Assembly: GCA_004298385.1 (NCBI GenBank)
Contig: SCTX01000030.1
Coordinates: forward strand, 12,069 to 76,068
Direction: 5' to 3'
Source: Betaproteobacteria bacterium
GTDB taxonomy: Bacteria; Pseudomonadota; Gammaproteobacteria; Burkholderiales; SG8-39
Length of the DNA stretch: 64,000 bases
Shown: positions 4,974-24,041 of the stretch, one piece after another
Position numbering within the stretch: the first letter of the stretch is position 1
Layout: every line of letters begins with the position of its first letter
Translations under genes and position numbers: made by a program
The notes under the pieces: generated by a model
Told to the model about the DNA's origin: nothing
What the model saw: only the letters and a program-made list of their open reading frames with translations
The model's database searches: none

Positions 4974-6518
<1,545 letters not shown>

Positions 6519-10319: not shown

Positions 10320-13300
10320 ATGAACAATCAGTTCTTCGAAAAGCCGATACTCAATTCGCCCTACGCCTATCCAATTCGTCATTGGGAGCTGGATGAGGTT
10401 GGGCAGCCGACCCAGAAGATCGTCGAAACGCGCCGCCGCGCAGAATTCATCACGCCGATCCCCAAGCCGAAGAAGCGCAAGGGAGCGGCGCAGCAGGACT
10501 CGCTGCTGTTCGACGAGGGCGCTGGCTTAACTACATCGAAACAGCGTTACGATCACACGGCCATTATCAATTCCGTGCGCCAGCAAGTGGATGCGTGGCG
10601 CAAGCTGCCCAACACCAATGACTGGCGCGTCACGCCCGAGACCGCGCGGCTGCTGCAGCATTGGCGCCAGCACAAATTCGGCGGCATCCGGCCGTTCTTC
10701 TGCCAGATCGAAGCTGTCGAAACCGCGATCTGGCTGACCGAGGTTGCACCCCAGGCGGGTAAGGTGGGCGAAAGTTTCATCGCTCACCTGGCCGATTCTA
10801 ACAACGAGGCCAATCCGGAGTTGATGCGCCTCGCGCTCAAGCTGGCCACCGGCGCCGGCAAGACCACCGTCATGGCCATGCTGATCGCCTGGCAAACCAT
10901 CAACGCGGTGCGCCGCCCGCAGAGCAAGCGTTTCACGCGCGGCTTTCTCGTGGTCGCGCCGGGCCTCACCATCAAGGACCGTTTGCGGGTGCTGCAACCC
11001 AACGATCCGGACAGCTATTACGCCAGCCGCGAACTCGTGCCGAATGACCTGCTCATCGAAGTACACAAGGCCAAGATCGTCATCACCAACTTTCACGCGT
11101 TCAAGCTGCGCGAGCGTATCGAGCTGTCCAAGGGCGGCCGCTCCTTGCTGCAGGGCCGGGGCGAAGAATTGAACACGCTCGAAACCGAAGGCCAGATGCT
11201 GCAGCGGGTGATGCCCGACCTGATGGGTATGAAGAACATCCTGGTGCTGAACGACGAAGCGCACCATTGTTATCGCGCGAAGCCCGGAGCGGGAGAAGAA
11301 GACCTGAAGGGCGACGAGAGAAAGGAAGCGGAGAAAAACAAAGAGGCGGCGCGACTGTGGATCAACGGCCTCGAGGCGGTGAAGCGCAAACTCGGCGTCG
11401 CTCGCGTGATCGATTTGTCCGCCACGCCGTTCTTCCTCAGCGGCTCGGGTTATGCGGAAGGGACGCTGTTCCCCTGGACCATGAGCGATTTCTCGCTGAT
11501 GGACGCGATCGAGTGCGGCATCGTGAAACTGCCGCGCGTCCCGGTGGCCGACAACATCCCGGGCAATGAAATGCCTATGTTCCGGAACCTATGGGAACAC
11601 ATACGAGCCAAGATGCCCAAGAAAGGGCGTGGCAAAGCGGGAGTACTCGACCCGCGCGATCTCCCACCGCAGTTACAGACGGCGTTAGATGCGCTATACG
11701 GACACTATGCAAAGACCTTTGCGCTCTGGGTCGAGAAGAAGGTCTCGGTACCCCCCTGCTTTATCGTGGTCTGCAACAACACTTCCACTTCGAAGCTGGT
11801 CTACGATTACATTTCCGGCTTCCAGCAAGAGAGCGAGGACGGCACCAGTCAACTGGTGTTTGGTCGGCTGCCGTTGTTCCAGAACCATGATGAACACGGC
11901 AATCCGCTGTCCCGGCCAAGAACTCTCCTAATTGATAGCGAGCAATTGGAGTCGGGCGAAGGCCTTGATGAGAGTTTCCGCGCCATGGCCTCCGACGAGA
12001 TCGACCGCTTCCGCCGTGAGATTCTCGCACGTGGCGGCAAGCTGGCTGGTGAACTCCAGCAGGGCAAGGAGATCGATGACGTCACCCTGCTGCGCGAGGT
12101 AATGAATACAGTAGGCAAGCGCGAGCAGCTCGGTGCTGACATCCGTTGCGTCGTGTCCGTGTCCATGCTGACCGAAGGTTGGGATGCCAACACCGTGACG
12201 CATGTGCTCGGCGTGCGTGCATTCGGCACCCAGCTCTTGTGCGAGCAAGTGATTGGCCGCGCACTGCGCCGTCAGTCCTACGAACTCAACGAAGACGGCC
12301 TGTTCAATGTCGAGTATGCCGACGTACTGGGCATTCCCTTCGACTTCACCGCCAAGCCGGTGGTTGCTCCGCCGCAGCCGCCGCGCGAAACCATCACGGT
12401 CAAAGCCGTGCGTCCCGATCGCGATGCGCTCGAAATTCGCTTTCCCCGCGTGGAGGGCTATCGCGTCGAGCTGCCGGAGGAGCGGCTTACCGCACAGTTC
12501 GACAAGGACTCGGTGCTCGATTTAACACCCGAACTCGTGGGTGCGACGCGGACCCGGAACTCGGGGATCATCGGCGAGGCAGTCGATCTAAATTTGGTGC
12601 ATACCGGCGACATTCGTCCCTCCCAGGTCGTATACGAGCTTACTTCCCACCTGTTGCTTACCAAGTGGCGGGATGCCGACGGCGCGCCGCAACTGCATTT
12701 GTTCGGCCAGTTGAAGCGCATTGTCAAACAATGGCTGGACGAGAAGCGGCTGGATTGCCGTGGCGGAACCTATCCGGCGCAACTCAAGTACAAGATGCTC
12801 GCCGACATGGCGTGCGAGCGCATTATGGCGGGCATCATGCGCACATCCGTCGGAAAACGCCCGATCAAGGCCGTGCTCGATCCCTATAACCCGGTCGGGT
12901 CCACCGCCCATGTGCGTTTCAACACGTCGCGCAGCGACCGCTGGGAGACGAACGGCCCGCCGCCCAAATGCCACATCAACTGGGTGCTGCTCGACAGCGA
13001 CTGGGAAGGCGAATTCTGCCGCGTGGCGGAATCGCATCCGCGCGTGCGCGCCTACGTGAAGAACCACAACCTCGGCCTCGAAGTGCCCTACCGCTACGGC
13101 TCGGAGACGCGCAAGTACCTGCCCGACTTCATCGTGCGCGTGGACGACGGCCACGGCGAAGAAGATCTCTTGAACCTGATCGTGGAGATCAAGGGCTACC
13201 GGCGCGAGGACGCCAAGGAGAAGAAGTCCACCATGGACGCCTACTGGGTGCCGGGCGTGAACAACCTCGGCACGCACGGGCGCTGGGCCTTCGCCGAGTT

Positions 13301-13403
13301 CACCGAGGTGTATCAGATCGAATCGGACTTCGAGGCCAAGGTGAAAAGCGAGTTCGACAAGATGATCGAGCGCGTCGGGCAGGGCGCGGGATCGGTGGCG
13401 TAA
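10320..13403 (+). CDS. res: Type III restriction enzyme Res subunit (SF2 helicase plus C-terminal PD-(D/E)xK-like nuclease)
   Basis: 1027 aa. Helicase motif I is LATGAGKTTVMA, motif II is LNDEAHHCY, then DLSATPF, TEGWDANTV and QVIGRALRR. The C-terminal YLPDFIVRV...LIVEIKGYR looks like a nuclease core. Confidence 0.9.
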   Translation: MNNQFFEKPILNSPYAYPIRHWELDEVGQPTQKIVETRRRAEFITPIPKPKKRKGAAQQDSLLFDEGAGLTTSKQRYDHTAIINSVRQQVDAWRKLPNTNDWRVTPETARLLQHWRQHKFGGIRPFFCQIEAVETAIWLTEVAPQAGKVGESFIAHLADSNNEANPELMRLALKLATGAGKTTVMAMLIAWQTINAVRRPQSKRFTRGFLVVAPGLTIKDRLRVLQPNDPDSYYASRELVPNDLLIEVHKAKIVITNFHAFKLRERIELSKGGRSLLQGRGEELNTLETEGQMLQRVMPDLMGMKNILVLNDEAHHCYRAKPGAGEEDLKGDERKEAEKNKEAARLWINGLEAVKRKLGVARVIDLSATPFFLSGSGYAEGTLFPWTMSDFSLMDAIECGIVKLPRVPVADNIPGNEMPMFRNLWEHIRAKMPKKGRGKAGVLDPRDLPPQLQTALDALYGHYAKTFALWVEKKVSVPPCFIVVCNNTSTSKLVYDYISGFQQESEDGTSQLVFGRLPLFQNHDEHGNPLSRPRTLLIDSEQLESGEGLDESFRAMASDEIDRFRREILARGGKLAGELQQGKEIDDVTLLREVMNTVGKREQLGADIRCVVSVSMLTEGWDANTVTHVLGVRAFGTQLLCEQVIGRALRRQSYELNEDGLFNVEYADVLGIPFDFTAKPVVAPPQPPRETITVKAVRPDRDALEIRFPRVEGYRVELPEERLTAQFDKDSVLDLTPELVGATRTRNSGIIGEAVDLNLVHTGDIRPSQVVYELTSHLLLTKWRDADGAPQLHLFGQLKRIVKQWLDEKRLDCRGGTYPAQLKYKMLADMACERIMAGIMRTSVGKRPIKAVLDPYNPVGSTAHVRFNTSRSDRWETNGPPPKCHINWVLLDSDWEGEFCRVAESHPRVRAYVKNHNLGLEVPYRYGSETRKYLPDFIVRVDDGHGEEDLLNLIVEIKGYRREDAKEKKSTMDAYWVPGVNNLGTHGRWAFAEFTEVYQIESDFEAKVKSEFDKMIERVGQGAGSVA

Positions 13404-13404
13404 T

Positions 13405-13617
13405 GAGCGGGCGCAATACGGCGAGGAGATTCTGCCGACACCGTCGGCAGAATTGGTGCCGGTCTATGGCAAGGGTTTCAGCGCCCGTAGTCTGGCGCGC
13501 ATTGAACAATTTGCCAAGGCATTTCCAGAAGCAGAGATTGTTGCCACACTGTCGCAACAATTGGGCTGGAGCCAAGACACGAAAGGGCTCACAAACGGCT
13601 CAATGGGCTCACGGTAA
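13405..13617 (+). pseudogene. Internal fragment of a DUF1016/YhcG-type (PDDEXK nuclease family) gene
   Basis: The frame reads ERAQYGEEILPTPSAELVPVYGKGFSARSLARIEQFAKAFPEAEIVATLSQQLGWSQ..*. This matches the N-terminal region of DUF1016 proteins as I remember it (..YG..GFS..NL..MRQF...fp...iv..Ls.qLsWsH). There is no start codon and no nuclease domain. Confidence 0.6.
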
Positions 13618-13629
13618 TAAAGGAGGCAA

Positions 13630-13840
13630 TGAAGACTTGAGATGCCAATTTGGCATTTCAAGTTCGCTGCACCTCGTTCCCGCTGGTGCAATTATGCGAT
13701 CACGACCCGTGACCGCATCGACCGGGGAGCACTTCAACTGGTCACAAACTGTGACAAGTGCACGGGTAGACGAACCTTCAAGGTCACAATTTGTGATCTT
13801 GAAGGTTCGCAGTGGATGGAGGCAATTTTTCTACACCTTT
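13630..13840 (+). pseudogene. Degenerate ORF6N-type gene remnant (three tandem xSQxVTS-like motifs)
   Basis: One frame reads LRCQFGISS...NWSQTVTS...SRSQFVILKVRSGW. This resembles the SQ(I/F)VT(S/L) segment found after ORF6N domains, including the intact gene at 14303. There is no start codon and no N-terminal domain. Confidence 0.4.
13771..13809. repeat. 39-nt inverted repeat with a GGTCACAA-T-TTGTGA(T/C)C core
   Basis: CGAACCTTCAAGGTCACAATTTGTGATCTTGAAGGTTCG, one mismatch. A shorter GTCACAAACTGTGAC lies at 13741-13755. Confidence 0.85.
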
Positions 13841-13970
13841 AGTGCGGCGGCTCAAGACCGCAAAGGGGCAATAAAGGGGCGAAAGGGGCAATCGCAGCAG
13901 CTACCACGAACCCGCCAGACCGGGGACGGAATGGGGACAAATAGGGGACAAAAGGGACATGGCTAACACG

Positions 13971-14011
13971 GTGATTCTTTAAGGTCACAATTTGTGACCT
14001 TAAAGAATCAC
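13971..14011. repeat. Perfect 41-nt palindrome with the same GGTCACAATTTGTGACC core
   Basis: GTGATTCTTTAAGGTCACAA-T-TTGTGACCTTAAAGAATCAC. Confidence 0.9.
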
Positions 14012-14053
14012 ATTGTGTGGCCGAAGCTTTTCTCCGCTTTCACTGCGGAGTAA
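13979..14053 (+). pseudogene. ORF6N-type gene remnant
   Basis: Reads LRSQFVTLKNHIVWPKLFSAFTAE*. It aligns with RSQIVTLKRGENIKYLPYAFTEQ of the intact ORF6N gene (14303-14878), about half of positions identical by hand. Confidence 0.55.
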
Positions 14054-14095
14054 TCTGGTCGATCAAGCAGCAGATATACGCAAACAGGGGACATC

Positions 14096-14296
14096 ATGGC
14101 GAGCACCTTACTTCTGGAAAAGATGTCGGTGGAAGAAAAGCTTCAGGCAATGGAATCGCTTTGGGACGACTTGTGCAGCAAGGCGGGTGGCATGGCGTCT
14201 CCGGCCTGGCACGAAGACGTCCTGGCCGAAAGGGAGGCGATGCAAAAGCGCGGTGAAGATCGATTCGAAGACTGGGAAGCTGCAAAGAAGGACTGA
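14096..14296 (+). CDS. Small antitoxin-like protein ('putative addiction module component' type)
   Basis: 66 aa, MSVEEKLQAMESLWDDL...SPAWHEDVLAEREAMQKRGEDRFEDWEAAKKD. This fits my recollection of the Unstab_antitox/TIGR02574-like pattern (L..ER..L...LW.SL......W..E...R.....G......W.E.K). No toxin gene follows it. Confidence 0.5.
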   Translation: MASTLLLEKMSVEEKLQAMESLWDDLCSKAGGMASPAWHEDVLAEREAMQKRGEDRFEDWEAAKKD

Positions 14297-14302
14297 ACGA
14301 CA

Positions 14303-14878
14303 ATGCCATCGATCACCCCAAGAAGCACACCCAAACCTGAGAATCTCGCGTCGCTGATTTACCTGCTGCGCGGAGAAAGAGTGCTCCTGAGCGAGCACCT
14401 TGCCGAGCTTTATGCCGTTCCTGTCAAAGTCCTCAATCAAGCAGTCAAGCGCAACATAGATCGATTCCCTGATGACTTCATGTTCCAGCTTACTCTGGAT
14501 GAAGCGGAGGCCATCCTCCGTTCAAGGTCACAAATTGTGACCTTGAAGCGGGGCGAGAACATCAAGTACCTTCCTTACGCCTTCACCGAGCAGGGTGTCG
14601 CCATGCTCTCCAGCGTGCTGCGCTCGCCGCGCGCGGTGGAGGTTAATATCGCGATCATGCGCACTTTCGTGCAGTTGCGGCGCCTGATGGATTCAAATCG
14701 CAATCTCGCGCGCCGGATCGAGGCGCTGGAGAAACGCTACGACGAACAATTCGCCACCGTCTTCGATGCCATCAAACGGCTGATCGCGGAAGACGAAAGC
14801 CGCAAGGCCAAGCCGAAACGCGGCATCGGCTTTCTTGCTGAACCCCGAACCAAGTACCGCGTCCAGACCCGATCCTGA
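14303..14878 (+). CDS. ORF6N-domain (KilA-N-related) DNA-binding protein
   Basis: 191 aa. IYLLRGERVLLSEHLAELYAVPVKVLNQAVKRNIDRFPDDFMFQLT...RSQIVTLKRGENIKYLPYAFTEQGVAMLSSVLRSPRAVEVNIAIMRTF is the typical ORF6N architecture. Confidence 0.75.
   Translation: MPSITPRSTPKPENLASLIYLLRGERVLLSEHLAELYAVPVKVLNQAVKRNIDRFPDDFMFQLTLDEAEAILRSRSQIVTLKRGENIKYLPYAFTEQGVAMLSSVLRSPRAVEVNIAIMRTFVQLRRLMDSNRNLARRIEALEKRYDEQFATVFDAIKRLIAEDESRKAKPKRGIGFLAEPRTKYRVQTRS
14521..14547. repeat. 27-nt perfect palindrome inside the ORF6N coding sequence
   Basis: TTCAAGGTCACAA-A-TTGTGACCTTGAA, which encodes SRSQIVTLK. Confidence 0.9.
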
Positions 14879-14890
14879 CGCACCGACACC

Positions 14891-17704
14891 ATGGCTAAGA
14901 AATCGAATAACCCAAAGACCGTAGAAGCCCTGAAGCACGACGAGGCGACGCGCAAGAACATCCCCACGGCCGAATACCAGTCCGTGCTGCAAAAGGCGGA
15001 GCAGAACCCCGTTCGCGTGGCTTACGAAAGACGCAATCGCGATCTGGACCCGCAACTCGTCTGGCGCGGCAAGGACGAACAGGACTGGAGCGACCTCGTC
15101 GTCCATGCCCCGCCGCTCTACATCCAGGAAAAGGTCCACCCCAAGGCGCTGATCGACGATCTGCTGCGCGAGACGAAGGAGCGCGAGCATGAGGCGGGTC
15201 AGACTACCGCCGACTTGTTTGCCGACTTCAACGGCATACCCAAGGGCGTGGACAAGACCGAGTTCTACCAGCACGACCAGAACTGGTCGAACCGCATGAT
15301 CCTAGGGGATTCGCTGCAGGTGATGGCTAGCCTTGCGGAGCGCGAAGGGCTGCGGGGTAAAGTGCAGTGCATCTTCCTTGATCCGCCCTACGGTATCAAA
15401 TTCAACAGCAACTTTCAGTGGTCCACTACAGATAGAGCTGGGACCACCACAGATTCGTCGGAGAAGATCAGCAGGGAACCGGAGCAGGTGAAAGCCTTCC
15501 GCGACACTTGGCGCGATGGCATCCACAGTTACCTCACCTACCTGCGTGACCGCTTCTCCGTTGCTCGTGATCTTCTCACGGAATCCGGTTCCATCTTCGT
15601 TCAAATCGGTGATGAGAACGTGCATCGAGTTCGAGTGGTGATGGATGAGATTTTTGGCGATGACAATTTTGTGGCTCTGATTCCATTCCGGAAGAAGACC
15701 ATGCCCTTTGGTTCGAGATATATTGAGCAGATGGCAGATTTCATACTTTGGTATGCAAAGGCGAAGACCGATTCGCGAGGCAATGCGAATGCAAAATACC
15801 GAAAGCAATTCCTACTGCGTTCGGTTGAAGGTGAGTTTCACCATTGCTGGTATGAAGACACCGAAGGTGTTCGAACCAGAATGTCGAGACGCCAACTCTA
15901 CAATCATGCATTGCTCCCGCCAAAATCCCGTGTGTATCGACTAAAGTCGCTTGAGCCTTCAGGACGAATGGACTCTGGGATGTTTAGTTTTGAGTTTCGC
16001 GGTCGACCCTACCCACATCCGAAGAACGGATTCGGAACGACCGAGGAAGGGTTAAGACAGATAGAGAAGACCAACCGTTTAGAGCCCGAAGGGAATCGTC
16101 TTTGTTACGTTCTGTACGCCGATGAGGGCGAGTCGTCCCAGATGACAGCACCTTGGTCTGACACAGTAGGGGCTGATGACAAGCAGTATGTCGTGCAGAC
16201 CAATACCGAGGTTGTAAAACGCTGCATTTTGATGACGACTGACCCTGGCGACCTAATCCTTGACCCGACGTGCGGCTCCGGCACCTCCGCTTTCGTCGCG
16301 GAACAATGGGGCCGGCGCTGGATCACCATTGACACTTCGCGTGTGGCGCTCGCGCTGGCTCGCGCCCGCATCATGGGTGCCCGCTACCCGTATTACCTGC
16401 TCGCCGATTCGCGCGATGGCCAGATCAAGGAAGCCGAAATCACGCGAACCGCATTCTCCTCGCAGCCGGCGCGAGGCGATATCCGTCACGGCTTTGTCTA
16501 CGAGCGCGTGCCACATATCACGCTCAAATCCATCGCCAACAACGCCGAGATCGACGTGATTTGGGATCAGTGGCAGGCAAAGCTAGAGCCTTTGCGTAAC
16601 AAACTCAACGTAGCACTGAAGAAAACTTGGCGGGATTGGGAAATCCCGCGTGACGCGGAGGCCAAGTGGTCCGAGTCTGCCACGAGGCTACACGCCGAAT
16701 GGTGGCAGGCGCGTATTGAGCGGCAGAACGAGATCGATGCGTCCATCGCCGCCAAGGCGGAATTTGAATACCTCTACGACAAGCCGTACGACGACAAGAA
16801 AAAGGTCCGCGTGGCCGGGCCGTTCACCGTCGAAAGCTTGTCGCCTCATCGCGTGCTCGGCGTGGACGAGAACGACGAGCTGATCGACACCGCTGCTCAA
16901 TCAGGTGCCGACTATGCCGCCAAGCAGACCTTCCCTCAGATGATCCTGGAAAACCTCAAGGTCGCCGGCGTGCAACAGGCACACAAGGACGACCGCATCA
17001 GCTTTATTGCACTCAATCCCTGGCCCGGCGAGCTGATCTGCGCGGAAGGCCGCTACGTCGAAAGCAACGCTGAAACCGGCACCGAAAAGCGAGCTGCCAT
17101 TTTCATCGGCCCGGAGTTTGGCACCGTCACCCGTCCTGATCTGGTGTCCGCCGCGCGTGAAGCGGGTGATGCTGACTTCGACGTGCTCATCGCCTGCGCC
17201 TTCAACTACGAGGCCCATGCCACCGAGTTCAGCAAGCTCGGCCGCATCCCCGTGCTCAAGGCGCGCATGAACGCCGACCTGCACATGTCGGACGACCTAA
17301 AGAGCACGAACAAGGCCAACCTGTTCGTAATCTTCGGCGAACCCGACATCACCATCCTTCCGGAGAAAGACGGCAAGCTGCGCATCAAGGTCAACGGCGT
17401 GGACGTCTTCCACCCGCAAACCGGCGAAGTCCGCAGCGACGGACCCGAAGGCATCGCCTGCTGGTTCATCGACACCGACTACAACGAAGAAAGTTTCTTC
17501 GTCCGCCACGCCTACTTCCTCGGCGCCAACGACCCCTACACTGCGCTCAAGACCACCCTGAAGGCCGAGATTAACGAGGAAGCGTGGGCTACGCTGAATA
17601 GCGACACCTCACGCGCATTCGACAAGCCGAAGTCGGGGCGCATCGCTGTGAAGGTCATCAATCACCTCGGAGATGAGGTAATGAAGGTGTTTCGGGTAGG
17701 TTGA
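14891..17704 (+). CDS. mod: Type III DNA methyltransferase Mod subunit (beta-class N6-adenine/N4-cytosine MTase)
   Basis: 937 aa. Motif IV FLDPPYGIKF lies N-terminal to motif I DPTCGSGTSAFVAEQWGRRWITID, which is the beta-class order. The long region between them is consistent with a target recognition domain. Confidence 0.9.
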   Translation: MAKKSNNPKTVEALKHDEATRKNIPTAEYQSVLQKAEQNPVRVAYERRNRDLDPQLVWRGKDEQDWSDLVVHAPPLYIQEKVHPKALIDDLLRETKEREHEAGQTTADLFADFNGIPKGVDKTEFYQHDQNWSNRMILGDSLQVMASLAEREGLRGKVQCIFLDPPYGIKFNSNFQWSTTDRAGTTTDSSEKISREPEQVKAFRDTWRDGIHSYLTYLRDRFSVARDLLTESGSIFVQIGDENVHRVRVVMDEIFGDDNFVALIPFRKKTMPFGSRYIEQMADFILWYAKAKTDSRGNANAKYRKQFLLRSVEGEFHHCWYEDTEGVRTRMSRRQLYNHALLPPKSRVYRLKSLEPSGRMDSGMFSFEFRGRPYPHPKNGFGTTEEGLRQIEKTNRLEPEGNRLCYVLYADEGESSQMTAPWSDTVGADDKQYVVQTNTEVVKRCILMTTDPGDLILDPTCGSGTSAFVAEQWGRRWITIDTSRVALALARARIMGARYPYYLLADSRDGQIKEAEITRTAFSSQPARGDIRHGFVYERVPHITLKSIANNAEIDVIWDQWQAKLEPLRNKLNVALKKTWRDWEIPRDAEAKWSESATRLHAEWWQARIERQNEIDASIAAKAEFEYLYDKPYDDKKKVRVAGPFTVESLSPHRVLGVDENDELIDTAAQSGADYAAKQTFPQMILENLKVAGVQQAHKDDRISFIALNPWPGELICAEGRYVESNAETGTEKRAAIFIGPEFGTVTRPDLVSAAREAGDADFDVLIACAFNYEAHATEFSKLGRIPVLKARMNADLHMSDDLKSTNKANLFVIFGEPDITILPEKDGKLRIKVNGVDVFHPQTGEVRSDGPEGIACWFIDTDYNEESFFVRHAYFLGANDPYTALKTTLKAEINEEAWATLNSDTSRAFDKPKSGRIAVKVINHLGDEVMKVFRVG

Positions 17705-17762
17705 GGCGGGGAATGAACATGAAACTAATTGCGGCGAGTAACATCGGAAAGGTAGTTGACTT

Positions 17763-18317
17763 ATGACCGATGCAGATATGCGCAAGCTTCCACTGGAGTC
17801 GCTGCACGAGCGGCACACTGGTCTCACACCCTTATTGGCCGGCGCATTCTTTGAGGCTGCTTCGGTTTGCTTAAACCGACATCACAATTCACCCGTGGAG
17901 ATGGAGATTGCGCGCAATGGCGGCACGAGTACCAGGCTGGCCGAGTTTCAAAAGCCGGACGCCCGTATTCTGAACGCTTGGGCCAACGACATCGATACGA
18001 CCGAGAATGGCGCGTACTGTGTGAGCTTGGGGGCAATGGAAGTCGAGGAACAACTGGTCGCGGTCAAGCGTGCCGAGACACTTTCCGGGGCGGATTGGTA
18101 CGTTGCTCCGATTGGGACTACCCCTGATGATTTGGAGCGCTGCCTCCGGCTGGAGGTCTCGGGTCTCGATACTGGGGGTCGTTCGGCCGTGGAGGCGCGC
18201 TTGCGGCAGAAGGTTGACCAAACAAGGAGAGGTGCAAGTAACCTGCCCGCCATCGCATCAGTCGTGGGATTCAAGGAAAGATCGATCGCGATTCAAAGAG
18301 TGGGTGACGACGAATGA
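17763..18317 (+). CDS. Hypothetical protein, 184 aa (unknown family)
   Basis: ATG lies 58 nt after the mod stop. The stop overlaps the next start (ATGA at 18314-18317). I recognise no motif with confidence. Confidence 0.6.
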   Translation: MTDADMRKLPLESLHERHTGLTPLLAGAFFEAASVCLNRHHNSPVEMEIARNGGTSTRLAEFQKPDARILNAWANDIDTTENGAYCVSLGAMEVEEQLVAVKRAETLSGADWYVAPIGTTPDDLERCLRLEVSGLDTGGRSAVEARLRQKVDQTRRGASNLPAIASVVGFKERSIAIQRVGDDE

Positions 18318-19423
18318 CTTGGGCCGAACTCCATGCCGAAAGCGAGCAGCTGGCAATCGAAGCCCAGTTGGCCTTACTGGCCAGAAACGCTAGACAAGCA
18401 GTCGATCTGTACAGGCGTGCGGCGGAAGCCGAGCGTCGAGCGCTTGATCAGCTTGACGGCTCGAAAGTAAGAACCAGGGGCATCACGGCCGTTAGTACCG
18501 TGGCTCTTTGGTTCAAGGCTCGTGAGTACGCCCTAGCTGAGCAGCTTGCGCACGCAATGCTCGCCGATCCATACATCCCGGACTTTGCGCGTGAGGATCT
18601 GAGAAATCTTGTCCAAGCAATCTGGACAGAGAGTTCCATGCAGAAAGCGGGCGTCGAGTTCGTTCCAGGCCAGGTCATGGTCTCAGTAAAAGGTGGTGAG
18701 GTCGTTACTGGCGGGGCGCCTCTTGATTTGATCGTCGATAAGGTCCAGACGATTCAAAAAATGTTTTACAGGACGATCGAATTCGTGAACGGCGTTTCAC
18801 TTCGCAGGGCCGGGCCGCCGCCAAAAGAACTACAAGACGCTTGCCGACCTTGGCTGTTTCAATCGGCCCCCGGTAGCTATCAGTTCTCGGTTGCAATCCA
18901 AAAGCCCGCGCAATCCGATTTTTTCAAAAAAGATATTCAACCAGAGAGAATCGCGCAGCATTTTCTCGAAATCGTTAGTGCCTCATCAGGTGATAATGCT
19001 GCGACACTTGAAAAATTGGTGCCGGACGAAAAATACCGCAGCACGTTTTTGAAGCTTGCACGTAATCTCGCCCCTACCGGGAAGACTTTTGAGCGCATTG
19101 AATTCCGCGCGTCTGGCGAAACACGACCTGTCGCCCTCGGTGTCGAATCTAGGGTTAGCATTAATCAGCAGCTACGCAAGAAATCCGACGTTCCAACAAC
19201 AGTGGATGAAGTACCTGAAGAACTACACGGAACTTTGCGGGCTTTGCATCTGGACAAGGACTGGCTGGAGGTCGTTGTAGGCGACGTGTCCATGCATGTT
19301 GTTGGACTTCAGGACGCGGTTGACGACGTGATTGGTCCAATGGTGAATCGGACGGTGGTTGTCCGGGCCATTCGTAGCTCGCAGAACAAGCTCACGTTTT
19401 TGGACATTGAGCTTGCTGACTGA
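18314..19423 (+). CDS. Hypothetical protein, 369 aa (unknown family; helical Ala/Arg/Glu-rich N-terminus)
   Basis: Translationally coupled to the preceding ORF. A long clean ORF in a region that is visibly less GC-rich. I recognise no family. Confidence 0.65.
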   Translation: MTWAELHAESEQLAIEAQLALLARNARQAVDLYRRAAEAERRALDQLDGSKVRTRGITAVSTVALWFKAREYALAEQLAHAMLADPYIPDFAREDLRNLVQAIWTESSMQKAGVEFVPGQVMVSVKGGEVVTGGAPLDLIVDKVQTIQKMFYRTIEFVNGVSLRRAGPPPKELQDACRPWLFQSAPGSYQFSVAIQKPAQSDFFKKDIQPERIAQHFLEIVSASSGDNAATLEKLVPDEKYRSTFLKLARNLAPTGKTFERIEFRASGETRPVALGVESRVSINQQLRKKSDVPTTVDEVPEELHGTLRALHLDKDWLEVVVGDVSMHVVGLQDAVDDVIGPMVNRTVVVRAIRSSQNKLTFLDIELAD

Positions 19424-19446
19424 AGTGGGACGTCTACTCAGAACCG

Positions 19447-19547
19447 GCGACACATCCTGCGCCTTCGACAAACCGAAGTCCGGGCGCATCGCTGTGAAAG
19501 TGATCAACCACCTGGGGGACGAGATGATGAAAGTCTTCAAGGTGTAG
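19447..19547 (+). pseudogene. Relic of the 3' end of a second, diverged Type III mod gene
   Basis: Reads DTSCAFDKPKSGRIAVKVINHLGDEMMKVFKV*, against DTSRAFDKPKSGRIAVKVINHLGDEVMKVFRVG* at the end of the intact mod (17601-17704). 29 of 32 aa are identical, with about 20 nt differences, mostly at third codon positions. Confidence 0.8.
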
Positions 19548-19564
19548 CGTAGTATTGGGCCTAC

Positions 19565-20323
19565 ATGAGCGACCGTCTCCTTAATCTTAAGTCTCCTCCA
19601 ATTGTCGAGGCAGTTCTCGATATTGATTGCGACATGCCGCCTATGCTGGCACTGGACAAGTTGGAAGCATCCGCCCGAGATGCGTTCCGCGATCATTACC
19701 CGAAATTTCGAACACAATTTCTTCAGGCTCTGCACGTCGAGGCAGCAGCGGATCGTGCGCCGAACGTGACGACCAGACAAGGGATTCAGGCGCTCCAGTT
19801 TTTGCAAGAAGACGAGAAGCAGCTTGTGCAATTGCGGACACAAGGCTTTTCTTTTAATCGATTGGCCCCATATAAGAGCTTGGACGATTACTTGCCGGAA
19901 ATAGAACGGACGTGGCGGTTATTTGTCGACCTTGCTGCGCCGGTTCAAATACGCGTTATCCGATTACGGTATATCAATCGCATTCCGCTCCCGATGACTG
20001 CAGGACGGGTCGATTTGGACGATTACCTGAAACTCGGTCCGCGACTTCCGGATGAAGATAAACTGACATTTGAGGGATTTCTCACTAAACATTCGGCGGT
20101 GGAATCGGATACTGACAATCGAGTAAACATTATTCTTTCAGCGCAGCCACCAGAAAATGATAAGCTTCCTGTAATTCTTGACATTGAAACCTATAAATCG
20201 GGTAATGCGGAGCCGCATAATTGGGCAGAAAGCCTCTCGAAAATCCAATCTTTGCGACGCTTGAAGAACCTTGTTTTTGAGAATTCTCTTACAGACCAAT
20301 GTTTGAAGCTGTTTCAGCACTAA
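19565..20323 (+). CDS. Hypothetical protein, TIGR04255-like (uncharacterised family)
   Basis: 252 aa. The N-terminus LKSPPIVEAVLDIDCDMPP...FRDHYPKF fits my memory of the TIGR04255 signature (..aPL.EVv.eirF......l......f......yP.). This needs an HMM check. Confidence 0.6.
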   Translation: MSDRLLNLKSPPIVEAVLDIDCDMPPMLALDKLEASARDAFRDHYPKFRTQFLQALHVEAAADRAPNVTTRQGIQALQFLQEDEKQLVQLRTQGFSFNRLAPYKSLDDYLPEIERTWRLFVDLAAPVQIRVIRLRYINRIPLPMTAGRVDLDDYLKLGPRLPDEDKLTFEGFLTKHSAVESDTDNRVNIILSAQPPENDKLPVILDIETYKSGNAEPHNWAESLSKIQSLRRLKNLVFENSLTDQCLKLFQH

Positions 20324-20841
20324 GAGTCCATCTGGGGTTCGCGTCCCTTTATTCGCTTGCGCGCCCCGGAAGCGCCATTTCGGCTGAAGCGCAAGCGGTC
20401 CAAAGAGCCGCCACAAGTGTGGTGGACTCCGTAGAGCGCTCGCAAGCCTTGTTCGGTGATAAAGCGACCGCAATCTCTCAGTTATGGGCTCTCGCGAACG
20501 AATGTGGAGAGCCCGGTTGGGATGGCGATGCCGCATTACCGCTGGATCATATGGCTGTTTTCAAGGCTGTTGCCTTCATACGGGCCTTGCCAGATGGAGT
20601 ACCGCTACCGGAGTTTGCCCCCGGGCCTGACGGTTCACTATCTCTTGATTGGATTTCGTCTCGAAATCGTCTTTTTTCATTGAGCGTCGGCTCTGGCGAT
20701 CGCTTGCCGTATGCGTGGTTGGACGGGACCGACAAGGGCCACGCCGTGGCTCGCTTTGATGGAGAGAGCGTTCCGCAAAGAATCCTGGAAGGGATAACGT
20801 CAATCTTAAAAGTTGGAAGTGCTCTCGTCCGGTCTCACTGA
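20299..20841 (+). CDS. Hypothetical protein, 180 aa
   Basis: The ATG overlaps the previous gene by 25 nt. Contains EPGWDGDAALPLDHMAVFKAVAFIRALPDGVPLPEFAPGPDGSLSLDW. Family unknown and the start codon is uncertain. Confidence 0.55.
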   Translation: MFEAVSALRVHLGFASLYSLARPGSAISAEAQAVQRAATSVVDSVERSQALFGDKATAISQLWALANECGEPGWDGDAALPLDHMAVFKAVAFIRALPDGVPLPEFAPGPDGSLSLDWISSRNRLFSLSVGSGDRLPYAWLDGTDKGHAVARFDGESVPQRILEGITSILKVGSALVRSH

Positions 20842-21226
20842 AATTGTTGAAGATGAGGAAAGTCTCGCCAGATTCCTCACTTCCTCCAGTCAATTCAACG
20901 CAAGCGGCGCGAAGCCGTCTGTTTTTTTACCGAATCCTAAAGATAGAGCGAAATCCGTGTTCCGTCACGGGAGTCAACCGAGGGACTCTCTCTGGCGAAT
21001 CGCGGAAGAACATATGGCTGGAGTCCGGACGCTTTATGGGGCGGCGATTGTCAAGGCAAAACATGTTCGATCCGCGCTGCTGGACGTGGTCGCTCAGGAA
21101 CCACCCCCACGGCATGCCAACATTGTCGGGTGGCCTTGGTCCGAAACTGATCCGGAGATGAGGAAAGCCGAACACATAGAGCGTGCTCTCGTTATCGTTC
21201 AGTGGGCCGAGGTGGTTCGGCGGTAA
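20813..21226 (+). CDS. Hypothetical protein, 137 aa
   Basis: TTG start at 20813 (or GTG at 20819) overlaps the previous gene by about 29 nt. Contains SVFRHGSQPRDSLW...PPPRHANIVGWPW. Family unknown. Confidence 0.5.
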   Translation: MEVLSSGLTEIVEDEESLARFLTSSSQFNASGAKPSVFLPNPKDRAKSVFRHGSQPRDSLWRIAEEHMAGVRTLYGAAIVKAKHVRSALLDVVAQEPPPRHANIVGWPWSETDPEMRKAEHIERALVIVQWAEVVRR

Positions 21227-21267
21227 CCACGGGATCGTCTACCGCGTCGCACACCTCCCGACAAACG

Positions 21268-23343
21268 ATGGATTTCCGCATCGCCGACACCTTCACCGAC
21301 AGCCTCGCGCGCCTGACCGGCGACGAACAGAAGGCCGCCAAGACCACCGCTTTCGATCTGCAGCTCAATCCGGTGAACCCCGGGATGCAGCTCCACAAGA
21401 TCGAGAAATCCAAGGACAAGAATTTCTGGTCGGTGCGCGTCGGCGCCGACATCCGCCTGATCGTGCACAAATCGCCGGGCAGCTTGCTGCTTTGCTACGT
21501 GGATCATCACGACAAGGCTTACGACTGGGCCAGGCGGCGGAGGCTGGAAGCGCATCCGAAGACGGGGGCGGCACAGTTTGTGGAGATCCGCGAGACGGTG
21601 CAGGAAATTCTGGTGCCGGCTTATGTCGAGGAGGCGAAGCCTGCGCCATATTTGGAGCCGTTGTTCGCGAAAGTTTCGGATGACGAGTTGCTCGGCTACG
21701 GCGTGCCCGCGGAGTGGCTGGCGGACGTGCGTGCCGCCACGGAAGGGACCCTGCTGACGCTGGCCGACCATTTGCCCGGCGAAGCGGCCGAGGCGCTGTT
21801 GGAACTGGCGACCGGCGGCAAACCGCGCGCGCCGCAGCCGGTCGCGCAGAAGGTGAACCCGTTCGATCATCCGGACGCGCAGCGCCGGTTCCGCGTGATG
21901 AGCAATGTGGAGGAGCTGGAGCGCGCGCTCGAGTTCCCGTGGGACAAATGGACGGTGTTTCTGCACCCGGAGCAGCGGCAATGGGTCGAGCGGGACTACG
22001 CCGGGCCGGCGCGGGTGTCGGGTTCCGCGGGCACGGGCAAGACCATCGTGGCGCTGCATCGTGCTGTGTACCTTGCGCGCAGCGATCCCGACAGCCGGGT
22101 GCTGCTGACGACGTTCTCCGAAACGCTGGCGAACGCGCTGCGCACGCGCTTGAGACGCTTGCTCGGCAACCAACCACGACTCGCCGAGCGGCTAGAGGTG
22201 CATGCCATGAATGCGATCGGCGAGCGTTTGTACGAGCAGCATTTTGGGAAGCCGCAGATCGCCACGCGCGAACTCATCCGCCGCTATATCGCGGCAGCGG
22301 TGGCAGAGCATGAAGGCCAGAAATTCAGCCCCGCTTTCCTGTTGTCGGAGTGGGAAGAGTTGGTCGATGCCTGGCATCTGGAGAACTGGGAGTCGTATCG
22401 GGACGTGAAGCGCCTGGGCAGGAAGACCCGCTTGCCCGAGGCCAGGCGCGCGACGCTTTGGGCGATGTTCGACGCGGTGCGTAAGCGCGTGGATGCCGAG
22501 GGGTTGGTCACCCGCGCGGGACTGTTCAATCGCCTGGCGGGCCAATTGCGTGAGCGCAAGCATCCGCCTTTCGACTATGTCGTGGTGGACGAGTCGCAAG
22601 ACGTGAGCGTGGCGCAACTGCGATTTCTGGCTGCGCTCGGAGCGGAGCGGCCAAATGGCCTCTTCTTTGCCGGCGATCTCGGACAGCGGATTTTCCAGCA
22701 GCCGTTTTCATGGAAATCCCTCGGCGTGGACATACGCGGCCGCGCGCGCACGCTGCATATCAACTACCGCACCTCGCATCAGATCCGGACGCAGGCGGAC
22801 CGGCTGCTCGCCCCCGAAGTGGCGGACGTGGACGGCAATGTCGAGGAACGCCGCGGCACGGTCTCGGTATTCAACGGACCGCCTCCTGTGGTTCAAGTCT
22901 TCGACAGCCAGGAAGAGGAAATCGAAGCGGCCGGTGCGTGGTTGGCTGAGAGGAGAAAGGAAGGCGTGATGTCTCACGAGATCGGCGTATTCGTGCGCTC
23001 GGAGGCGCAGCTGGAACGCGCCCGCGCAGCGCTCGCCCGAGCCGGACTGCCGTTCAAGGTGCTCGACGACGGCGTGGAGATAACCTACGGTCGGGTGTCT
23101 ATCAGTAGCATGCATCTGGCCAAGGGCCTGGAGTTCCGCGCGGTGGCGGTGATGGCCTGCGACGACGAAGTCATTCCGTTGCAGGCGCGCATCGAGACCG
23201 CGGCCGAGGATTCCGATCTGGAAGAGGTGTACAACACCGAACGCCACCTGCTGTACGTCGCCTGCACGCGGGCACGGGATCACCTGCTTGTCACAAGCGT
23301 AGAACCCGCGTCGGAATTTCTGGACGATCTTCAATCGAGATAA
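21268..23343 (+). CDS. UvrD/Rep-like SF1 helicase with an N-terminal RelE/ParE-like domain
   Basis: 691 aa from ATG 21268. Walker A is SGSAGTGKTIVALHRA and motif II is VVVDESQDVS, followed by INYRTSHQI, SMHLAKGLEFRAV and LLYVACTRARDHLLV. The first ~90 aa (FWSVRVGADIRLIVHKSPGSLLLCYVDHHDKAY) resemble the RelE/ParE toxin fold pattern. Confidence 0.85.
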   Translation: MDFRIADTFTDSLARLTGDEQKAAKTTAFDLQLNPVNPGMQLHKIEKSKDKNFWSVRVGADIRLIVHKSPGSLLLCYVDHHDKAYDWARRRRLEAHPKTGAAQFVEIRETVQEILVPAYVEEAKPAPYLEPLFAKVSDDELLGYGVPAEWLADVRAATEGTLLTLADHLPGEAAEALLELATGGKPRAPQPVAQKVNPFDHPDAQRRFRVMSNVEELERALEFPWDKWTVFLHPEQRQWVERDYAGPARVSGSAGTGKTIVALHRAVYLARSDPDSRVLLTTFSETLANALRTRLRRLLGNQPRLAERLEVHAMNAIGERLYEQHFGKPQIATRELIRRYIAAAVAEHEGQKFSPAFLLSEWEELVDAWHLENWESYRDVKRLGRKTRLPEARRATLWAMFDAVRKRVDAEGLVTRAGLFNRLAGQLRERKHPPFDYVVVDESQDVSVAQLRFLAALGAERPNGLFFAGDLGQRIFQQPFSWKSLGVDIRGRARTLHINYRTSHQIRTQADRLLAPEVADVDGNVEERRGTVSVFNGPPPVVQVFDSQEEEIEAAGAWLAERRKEGVMSHEIGVFVRSEAQLERARAALARAGLPFKVLDDGVEITYGRVSISSMHLAKGLEFRAVAVMACDDEVIPLQARIETAAEDSDLEEVYNTERHLLYVACTRARDHLLVTSVEPASEFLDDLQSR

Positions 23344-23413
23344 TAGAAGAACTTGTCATTCTACGGCGGTCTAAAATGGGAACGCGACATCCGCCCACCA
23401 ACCCAAGGTACAA

Positions 23414-23830
23414 ATGGCCACTACGGACTTCGACCCCAACGACACACCCGCCCCGCTCCCCCGCGATGGACTGATCACACTCACGCACGTGATCTACGGC
23501 TTGCACGCGTTCAGCGCCCTCACCGGCCTGCTGAGCTCGGCGCTGATCGTCACGGCCTTCCTCTCCGGCTGGCCGTCGATCATCGCGGTGATCCTCAACT
23601 ACGTGAAGCGCTCGGATGTGCGCGGCACCTGGCTCGATTCGCACTTCGGCTGGCAAATCCGCACGTTTTGGTTCGCGCTCTTGTTCTTCGTGGCGGGCGG
23701 AATTGCGTTCGTAACGGTGCTGGGAATTCCGATCGCGATAGTTGTCTGGATTTGCACCGGCATCTGGGTGCTCTACCGCATCGTGCGCGGCTGGATGGGG
23801 CTCGCTGAGAAGAAGGCGATGCCGCTGTAG
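23414..23830 (+). CDS. Small integral membrane protein (DUF4870/COG3671-like)
   Basis: 138 aa with about four transmembrane helices. Contains ILNYVKRSDVRGTWLDSHFGWQIRTFWF. Confidence 0.6.
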   Translation: MATTDFDPNDTPAPLPRDGLITLTHVIYGLHAFSALTGLLSSALIVTAFLSGWPSIIAVILNYVKRSDVRGTWLDSHFGWQIRTFWFALLFFVAGGIAFVTVLGIPIAIVVWICTGIWVLYRIVRGWMGLAEKKAMPL

Positions 23831-24041
23831 TTGGAGGATTGCCGAGGCTCTCCTCGATACGCGGGCACAGGCCAGTCCTCTCGGGCAAGCGCAAAGTGCC
23901 GCCGCAGCCGACATGCCTGCGGCTGGGACCGATTGCAATTACACCGACACCGGCGACCGCCGAGAGAATAACAATCAAAGCCGTGCTATAGTCATTTCGC
24001 TTGTTTTTTTGAAACGACAACCCGCGGAAGGAGGCTCACCC

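Follow-up and report, generated by a model that had tools for sequence, protein, structure and literature searches.

The window analysed here is a 64,000-nt stretch of a Betaproteobacteria bacterium genome (assembly GCA_004298385.1, contig SCTX01000030.1, positions 12,069 to 76,068 of the forward strand). It carries a 1.66-kb cassette of three overlapping open reading frames (ORFs) on the + strand. ORF1 (19565-20323, ATG start, 252 aa) is the first cassette gene and belongs to the TIGR04255 family, and it is followed by ORF2 (20299-20841, ATG start, 180 aa) and ORF3 (20813-21226, TTG start, 137 aa), the putative effector, each from an unnamed family. The overlaps measure 25 nt between ORF1 and ORF2 and 29 nt between ORF2 and ORF3. 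An in-frame GTG at 20819 (+ strand) is an equally plausible start for ORF3, giving 135 aa and a 23-nt overlap; both starts are compatible with the family, because ORF3 homologues open with M(A)EVLSSGL or MLPSGL. An earlier reading of the sequence alone (the original prediction) had placed three ORFs here, overlapping by about 25 and about 29 nt and starting 17 nt past a relic of a mod gene. This layout was recovered exactly on the + strand, the TAG of the relic lying at 19545-19547, and the motifs quoted from the proteins are found in the translations.

Compared with homologues of 55-90% identity, the nucleotide differences at codon positions 1, 2 and 3 were ~0.28, ~0.20 and ~0.60 in each ORF, which indicates purifying selection in these frames of ORF1, ORF2 and ORF3. 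Three antisense ORFs over the cassette (minus strand; 19223-19843, 20138-20536 and 20576-20893) were deemed spurious because conservation and codon-position patterns track the + strand frames. No Rfam RNA family matched within 13000-24000. Promoter- and terminator-like sites in 17600-21500 were no commoner than in shuffled sequence and are uninformative as to a promoter or terminator belonging to the cassette.

The three genes form a single conserved unit

Using ORF3 as the anchor, we scanned 185,579 species genomes and kept 80 loci (L007-L086) of 106 confirmed; together with further look-ups they make up 82 non-redundant genome loci. A second set consisted of metagenome contigs anchored on ORF2, giving ~160 loci across both sets. 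The gene order ORF1-ORF2-ORF3 was unchanged across these ~160 loci, which span at least 12 phyla. ORF2 lies directly upstream of ORF3 in 79 of the 82 genome loci, the exceptions being two contig edges and one internal deletion (L075), and ORF1 is present upstream of ORF2 in 73 of the 82. On the metagenome contigs, ORF3 comes next in 65/66 and ORF1 stands ahead in 62/63 testable loci. The overlaps persist as well: an ORF1-ORF2 overlap is seen in 67/68 loci, usually of 22-31 nt (modes 22, 25 and 28 nt), and an ORF2-ORF3 overlap in 66/75 loci, usually of 23-32 nt (modes 29 and 23 nt). A Shine–Dalgarno-like motif precedes the ORF2 start in only 12% of loci, in keeping with translational coupling of ORF2 to ORF1.

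Divergence within the cassette is closely shared. Across 126 loci, identity to the window copy correlated among ORF1, ORF2 and ORF3 at r 0.82-0.92, compared with r 0.55 between the cassette and the helicase gene downstream of it and r 0.40 between the cassette and the methyltransferase Mod. The three genes are one unit with near-obligate linkage. The single unit first proposed is thereby borne out, since order, orientation and long overlaps are kept in essentially every testable locus. The triplet is conserved as a block, with the downstream helicase frequent and not fixed.

In one metagenome-assembled genome (MAG; L080, protein P0391), ORF1 and ORF2 are fused in frame, TIGR04255 (E 1e-40) being joined to the ORF2 domain. 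As a Rosetta stone this fusion was given little weight because it is unique; its closest relative (85% identity) is unfused. A programmed -1 frameshift that would make an ORF1-ORF2 fusion was considered and rejected, a canonical slippery heptamer being present in the last 15 ORF1 codons of 3 of 154 loci. ORF2 lies in the -1 frame of ORF1, yet keeps its own conserved ATG and N-terminus. L075 (9660-10210) is a deletion derivative, in which residues 1-126 of ORF1 run straight into residues 66-135 of ORF3, downstream of a Res-ORF6N-Mod set that is otherwise intact.

The cassette is horizontally mobile

In the genome scan, the cassette was found in Beta-, Gamma-, Delta- and Alphaproteobacteria, Nitrospirota, Verrucomicrobiota, Planctomycetota and Acidobacteriota, and further in Hydrogenedentota, Binatia, Chloroflexota, Spirochaetes, Armatimonadota and others. 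Its distribution covers no fewer than 12 phyla, with protein identities of 50-90%. In 59/62 loci its guanine-plus-cytosine (GC) content is lower than that of the flanks, the mean difference being 5.7 points; in the window the cassette has 52% GC, the helicase 64% and the rest 62%. The closest relative (L007) is 94-98% identical across the cassette. Its ORF3 is 98% identical and its helicase 78%, which points to a recombination breakpoint between these two genes. A more distant clade (L080-type) has all three families (hidden Markov model (HMM) E-values 1e-15 to 1e-28), inserted on their own amid transporter or metabolic genes. L080-type cassettes lie on three IMG/VR viral contigs, and ORF3 of the window-type clade was not found in IMG/VR. 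In summary, the cassette is horizontally mobile.

Restriction-modification and helicase genes are frequent, facultative neighbours

Upstream of the cassette in the window lies a Type III restriction-modification (RM) system composed of Res (10320-13403; Pfam ResIII and RE_endonuc) and the Mod methyltransferase (14891-17704, + strand; Pfam N6_N4_Mtase). The relic before ORF1 is a remnant of the mod 3' end (19447-19547, + strand), comprising the last ~33 codons and the TAG, with a translation that matches the Mod C-terminus. Its positions 19447-19537 form a 91-nt direct repeat that is 82% identical to 17601-17691, the 3' end of the intact mod, so the remnant recreates the canonical mod-ORF1 junction. 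Mod 3' remnants also stand directly upstream of ORF1 in the place of a full mod in L008 and L071; in L011 a full mod is found 1.6 kb further upstream, and in L009 mod 3' fragments flank the cassette on both sides. The remnants that accompany the cassette where full mod is lacking suggest that the cassette is exchanged by recombination at the mod 3' end.

A Type III mod gene immediately precedes the cassette in 25/66 genome and 26/49 metagenome loci (38-53%), with a junction of ~17-30 nt. Type I hsdR, hsdM or hsdS genes adjoin it in ~7 loci, one of which (L082) is arranged as HsdM-HsdS-x-cassette-HsdR. On the other side, a UvrD-like helicase gene directly follows ORF3 in 23/76 genome and 20/44 metagenome loci (30-45%). 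In the window this UvrD/GajB-like helicase (21270-23343, + strand; Pfam UvrD-helicase and UvrD_C) probably starts at ATG 21270 (MDFRIADTF...), 43 nt past the ORF3 stop; the longest ORF begins at GTG 21202. It matches the PADLOC GajB and NERD+UvrD models, and its N-terminal domain of ~100 aa gives a weak HigB/RelE-like match (E 0.018) over residues 58-103. The six-gene block Res-Mod-ORF1-ORF2-ORF3-helicase recurs in L004, L018, L021, L022, L035, L046, L053, L073 and others, with hosts in Nitrospirota, Acidobacteriota, Verrucomicrobiota, Spirochaetes and Proteobacteria. Among 42 loci with both flanks available, 8 have mod and helicase, 3 mod only, 1 helicase only and 30 neither. The position between an RM system and a helicase, as originally described, is therefore a real link and a facultative one, and the helicase is a frequent facultative neighbour rather than part of the cassette core.

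This neighbourhood is the ground for the main rival to an autonomous module, namely a PrrC-like role as RM accessory or guard, in which the cassette would work only with the RM enzyme and often the helicase, for example as a latent effector freed when a phage inhibits restriction. The position between hsdS and hsdR in L082 is what we take to be the prrC slot, and the short junction behind Type III mod, the recurrence of the block across phyla and the mod 3' remnant that travels with the cassette all fit such a role. PrrC in EcoprrI is a precedent for a latent effector in an RM locus (PMC1484252, PMC3458546). An obligate mechanism is weakened, however, by the 30 of 42 two-flank loci that have neither mod nor helicase, and by the L080-type clade, which resides among transporter and metabolic genes. 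Co-divergence with Mod and with the helicase is weak compared with that inside the cassette, and in the window itself a two-gene insertion parts mod from the cassette, and the helicase differs in GC and history. We consider the guard role improbable.

The insertion (17763-19423) consists of two ORFs, of 184 aa and 369 aa, that share 4 nt and matched no family in any library searched, and it is bracketed by the 91-nt mod 3' direct repeat (17601-17691 and 19447-19537). It has the appearance of a second cassette that entered at the 3' end of mod and lies between that gene and ORF1-ORF3. The C-terminus of the 369-aa protein recurs alone at the contig edges of L007 and L139. Between res and mod lies an ORF6N-domain gene (14303-14878; PADLOC PDC-S05, E 1.8e-52), and ORF6N insertions at this position also occur in L012, L016, L046, L075 and L077. 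A 28-nt near-perfect palindrome, TTCAAGGTCACAAwTTGTGACCTTGAAG, is present three times, with two copies in the res/ORF6N intergenic region (13777-13804 and 13978-14005) and one inside the ORF6N gene (14521-14548); judged by sequence, these copies look like operator sites. In L004/L005 (10812-12053), a SocA_Panacea-domain gene and a 241-aa gene come right after the helicase of the block, and they are probably another toxin-antitoxin (TA) pair.

ORF1 is a full-length TIGR04255 protein

ORF1 scored 113.4 bits against NCBIfam TIGR04255 (curated cut-off 30; E 1.5e-32). The match spans residues 8-250 of its 252 and model positions 2-251 of 252, by which ORF1 is a bona fide full-length member, as had been proposed earlier from its N-terminal signature. 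No Pfam, PADLOC or PHROG family matched ORF1, and a search of the PDB with the ORF1-family profile found nothing. Its conserved residues include P12, E15, D19, R135, N138, D206 and K234. A literature search found no paper mentioning TIGR04255, a 'sporadically distributed' NCBIfam family with no function in its name.

Only part of the TIGR04255 family is linked to ORF2 and ORF3. On a Crinalium plasmid, a TIGR04255 gene has two unrelated small proteins downstream, and on a Thermus plasmid one other small protein. On a Vibrio plasmid (CP063527), TIGR04255 is followed by a 179-aa gene and then by a zeta toxin, which occupies the slot of ORF3. The downstream genes on these three plasmids were compared with ORF2 and ORF3 and rejected as homologues, as no signal was obtained.

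ORF2 and ORF3 represent two families with no named relatives

A set of 5.8 billion proteins yielded 637 ORF2 homologues and 415 ORF3 homologues, all full length and all labelled hypothetical. ORF2 has no family in Pfam, NCBIfam, PADLOC or PHROG and no sequence relative in the PDB. PADLOC PDC-M32A was considered as the family of the ORF2 domain and dismissed, the match being weak (E 0.01, 12.9 bits) and a 403-aa ORF2-domain protein of L001 giving none. The AlphaFold2 model of ORF2 (predicted local distance difference test (pLDDT) 81) opens with N-terminal helices, which are followed by a conserved GWDG loop, a further helix, a meander of five strands (residues 105-152) and a helix at 160-174. 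It had no significant fold match in the PDB, the best being the DNA-binding domain of T4 MotA at E 1.1. The C-terminal domain of ORF2 (~residues 70-175) is the constant partner of ORF3.

For ORF3, a profile search of 1.84 billion representatives gave 1915 clusters at 50% identity, almost all of them stand-alone proteins of ~135 aa. ORF3 likewise had no match in Pfam, NCBIfam, PADLOC or PHROG and no sequence relative in the PDB. Its AlphaFold2 model is confident (pLDDT 90, predicted template modelling score 0.86) and shows a compact alpha/beta protein of six strands and four helices, for which Foldseek found nothing significant in the PDB or BFVD. The HMM searches and structure predictions that had been proposed as checks thus agree with the first impression that neither small protein has a recognisable function: TIGR04255 is the single family assigned, and the models of ORF2 and ORF3 have no significant match among solved structures.

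A specific version of the TA-like reading set out below is that ORF3 is a minimal NAD+-using toxin of the ADP-ribosyltransferase (ART) fold, with R20, S48 and E96 as its triad and ORF2 as its protein inhibitor. By TM the ORF3 model comes closest to KptA/Tpt1, and no other PDB match reached a non-trivial TM and probability; the KptA/Tpt1 matches (probability 0.41-0.60, TMq 0.38-0.45, rmsd 3.0-3.6 Å over ~95 columns) have E-values of 0.6-0.8 and are not significant. KptA/Tpt1 is an ART-fold enzyme. Among 125 diverse representatives, E16, R20, S48, R51, E96 and H101 of ORF3 are 88-97% conserved, with 92/97/88% for R20/S48/E96, and in the model beta1 carries R20, beta2 carries S48 and R51, and beta5 carries H101, with E96 immediately ahead of beta5. 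R20, S48 and E96 occur in the expected ART order, and their modelled arrangement is compatible with an R-S-E-like ART triad. The local motifs are non-canonical, however, unlike aromatic-R, S-T-S and E-x-E, and E96 is replaced in a divergent homologue (L091). One of 98 ORF3-family members gives a weak Pertussis_S1 match (E 0.079), against 97 with no ART, RES or DarT signal in Pfam.

Genes for enzymes that remove ADP-ribose adjoin the module in three independent loci. An ADP-ribosylglycohydrolase (ARH) gene lies 81 nt upstream of ORF1 in L020 (7593-8645), and another, encoding an enzyme 25% identical to it, comes right after the helicase in L073 (12507-13523). In L001, a Macro-domain gene (5032-5589) is found upstream of a variant module, one gene away. 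All three are on the same strand as the ORF3-containing module. Leaving aside RM and helicase genes, a Pfam census covered 149 neighbour proteins, and two of these were ARH members, compared with ~0.1 expected as a rough estimate from general gene frequencies. The ARH/Macro association is above this chance expectation, but it was seen post hoc among 121 neighbour families and is absent from >95% of loci, and we regard it as a lead only. Taken together, these data leave the ART-toxin version with a low probability.

In an ORF3-family representative of 239 aa (P0382), the N-terminus, ERDICTKFFTPAL, continues into the last two-thirds of an ORF3 homologue. We take this start to be the N-terminal motif of Type I HsdR, and P0382 is probably a rearrangement at an hsdR/cassette junction.

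The first gene is swappable among varied neighbours

The ORF2 C-terminal domain and ORF3 also occur apart from TIGR04255, in L001, L037, L070, L074, L085 and L086, where unrelated proteins replace ORF1 or the N-terminal part of ORF2. The replacement proteins of L001 (282 and 403 aa), L086 (240 aa) and L085 (220 aa) were tried as remote TIGR04255 homologues and gave no hhalign signal. A zeta-toxin-domain gene is found in L037, 270 nt ahead of ORF2'-ORF3 and behind an HsdM-like gene. Such mix-and-match partners, which on the Vibrio plasmid include one known toxin, are typical of conflict systems.

Besides RM and helicase genes, the cassette has ORF6N/PDC-S05, SocA_Panacea, GmrSD, RhuM, Fic, AAA_21, DUF4062 and transposase genes as neighbours. 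In the census, TctC was the largest group with 11 members, an abundance that presumably mirrors Betaproteobacterial gene content; DDE transposases had 3 members, and Fic, AAA_21, DUF4062 and DUF4143 had 2 each. As raw counts for the defence context, RM genes adjoin ~40-50% of loci and the GajB-like helicase 30-45%.

A tripartite conflict module is the favoured interpretation

We favour the reading that the cassette is autonomous and mobile, a tripartite TA-like or abortive-infection module of the conflict-system class, and give it an even chance of being right. The broader statement that it is a conflict or defence/TA-type cassette is moderately probable. In the mechanism we propose, ORF3 would be the enzymatic effector or toxin, a compact alpha/beta protein with the conserved polar set E16, R20, S48, R51, E96 and H101. 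ORF2, whose C-terminal domain always accompanies ORF3, would bind ORF3 and neutralise or position it. ORF1, the TIGR04255 protein, would be translated first, coupled to ORF2, and serve as a swappable third partner linking the pair to a trigger. These particular roles (ORF3 as effector, ORF2 as neutraliser, the TIGR04255 protein as third partner) are a tentative assignment, and rather doubtful as a whole. The TA-like or sensor/effector pair that the original prediction saw in the small genes remains a candidate reading, which gene sizes, coupling, patchy spread, low GC, RM and defence neighbours and the zeta example all fit; what did not emerge is a likeness to any known toxin or antitoxin.

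Several observations weigh against this interpretation. No component matched a model of a known toxin, antitoxin, nuclease or defence protein, or a solved structure significantly. No helix-turn-helix (HTH), ribbon-helix-helix (RHH) or AbrB domain was detected in ORF1 or ORF2 with Pfam and NCBIfam, and classical type II antitoxins usually carry an HTH or RHH regulator domain. All 80 kept genome matches are MAGs, with no cultured isolate (106 confirmed), and uncultured hosts give no phenotype. ORF3 was not found in 72,556 plasmids or 50,697 phage genomes, which is unusual for a classical addiction module. The remaining census members are mostly housekeeping families with a few defence or mobile genes, a composition that fits TA and lends no positive support to defence. 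Finally, the zeta parallel is one record, the Vibrio plasmid, and the zeta gene of L037 may be a separate module, which clouds the notion that position 3 is always a toxin.

Two further readings can be graded against the tripartite module. An undescribed, widespread three-protein immune or abortive-infection system, composed of TIGR04255 and two new folds, with ORF3 as a minimal NAD+-dependent (ART-like) or novel effector, which would preferentially join RM operons of Type III and Type I and act as a backup when restriction fails, is in our view unlikely. The least likely reading, given distribution and composition, is that the cassette is no conflict system and encodes a small, incidentally mobile complex with an ordinary role in DNA repair or processing, regulation or stress response: the lack of toxin or defence-protein homology, the many housekeeping neighbours and the annotated recurrent neighbours that act on DNA (methyltransferase, restriction helicase and UvrD-like helicase) would suit it, but an extremely patchy spread over at least 12 phyla at high identity, consistently foreign GC, the restriction of the kept matches to uncultured hosts, a small, tightly overlapping and self-contained architecture with a swappable first gene, and copies on viral contigs and beside transposases make it very improbable.

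The cassette, whichever its role, appears undescribed so far. TIGR04255 gains a genetic setting as the first gene of swappable three-gene cassettes, and ORF2 and ORF3 add two apparently new families and folds, with confident predicted structures, that form a near-obligate pair. If the cassette is a TA or anti-phage module, it would add a system whose carriers known to date are all uncultured environmental bacteria, and the lack of a cultured isolate among the 80 kept matches would account for its having escaped screens based on E. coli and Bacillus. If it is a conflict module, it provides a fresh case of accessory genes within RM operons, along the PrrC paradigm. Among many candidates of this sort it is a solid one, and it stands out for how widely it occurs, for two apparently new folds, for lying within RM operons and for being confined to uncultured lineages. 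At 1.66 kb, it is cheap to synthesise and express.

Comparison with known systems

Like type II TA pairs, ORF2 and ORF3 are adjacent, co-oriented, overlapping (66/75) and jointly inherited (79/82 and 65/66). In contrast to such pairs, they fall outside the recognised toxin and antitoxin superfamilies, and no DNA-binding antitoxin domain was detected in ORF1 or ORF2. The omega-epsilon-zeta and PezAT systems likewise consist of small, co-directional, packed genes on mobile DNA, three in number, with the presumed toxin last. They differ in that ORF3 carries no P-loop or zeta-kinase domain (no Zeta_toxin or AAA_33 match), that ORF1 is a 252-aa TIGR04255 protein and not a small RHH repressor, and that no sequence or structural similarity links the cassette proteins to epsilon or zeta; zeta domains were seen only on the Vibrio plasmid and in L037.

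The likeness to PrrC/EcoprrI lies in the embedding in RM operons, behind Type III res-mod and, in L082, between hsdS and hsdR. As with RloC, RM linkage of the cassette is frequent and not obligate (PMC1484252, PMC3458546). PrrC is a single polypeptide with ABC-ATPase and anticodon-nuclease domains, whereas the cassette encodes three small, unrelated proteins, in none of which an NTPase or PrrC domain is present, and most of its copies adjoin no RM system. With DarT-DarG and ART/RES toxins, the cassette shares a small and possibly ART-like ORF3 and the Macro or ARH genes that adjoin the module in three loci. ORF3 differs from these toxins in having no DUF4433, RES or ART match in Pfam and a structural similarity below significance, and ORF2 is not a macrodomain. 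Likeness to Gabija and NERD+UvrD is confined to the downstream helicase; an OLD nuclease of the GajA type is missing, and none of the cassette proteins matches a component of Gabija. In PADLOC-DB v2, ORF1, ORF3 and the variant and fused forms had no match, and the cassette corresponds to no PADLOC system. The cassette is a member of no named TA or defence family, and we class it as one of the TA-like or defence-island kind, built from components that have so far gone undescribed.

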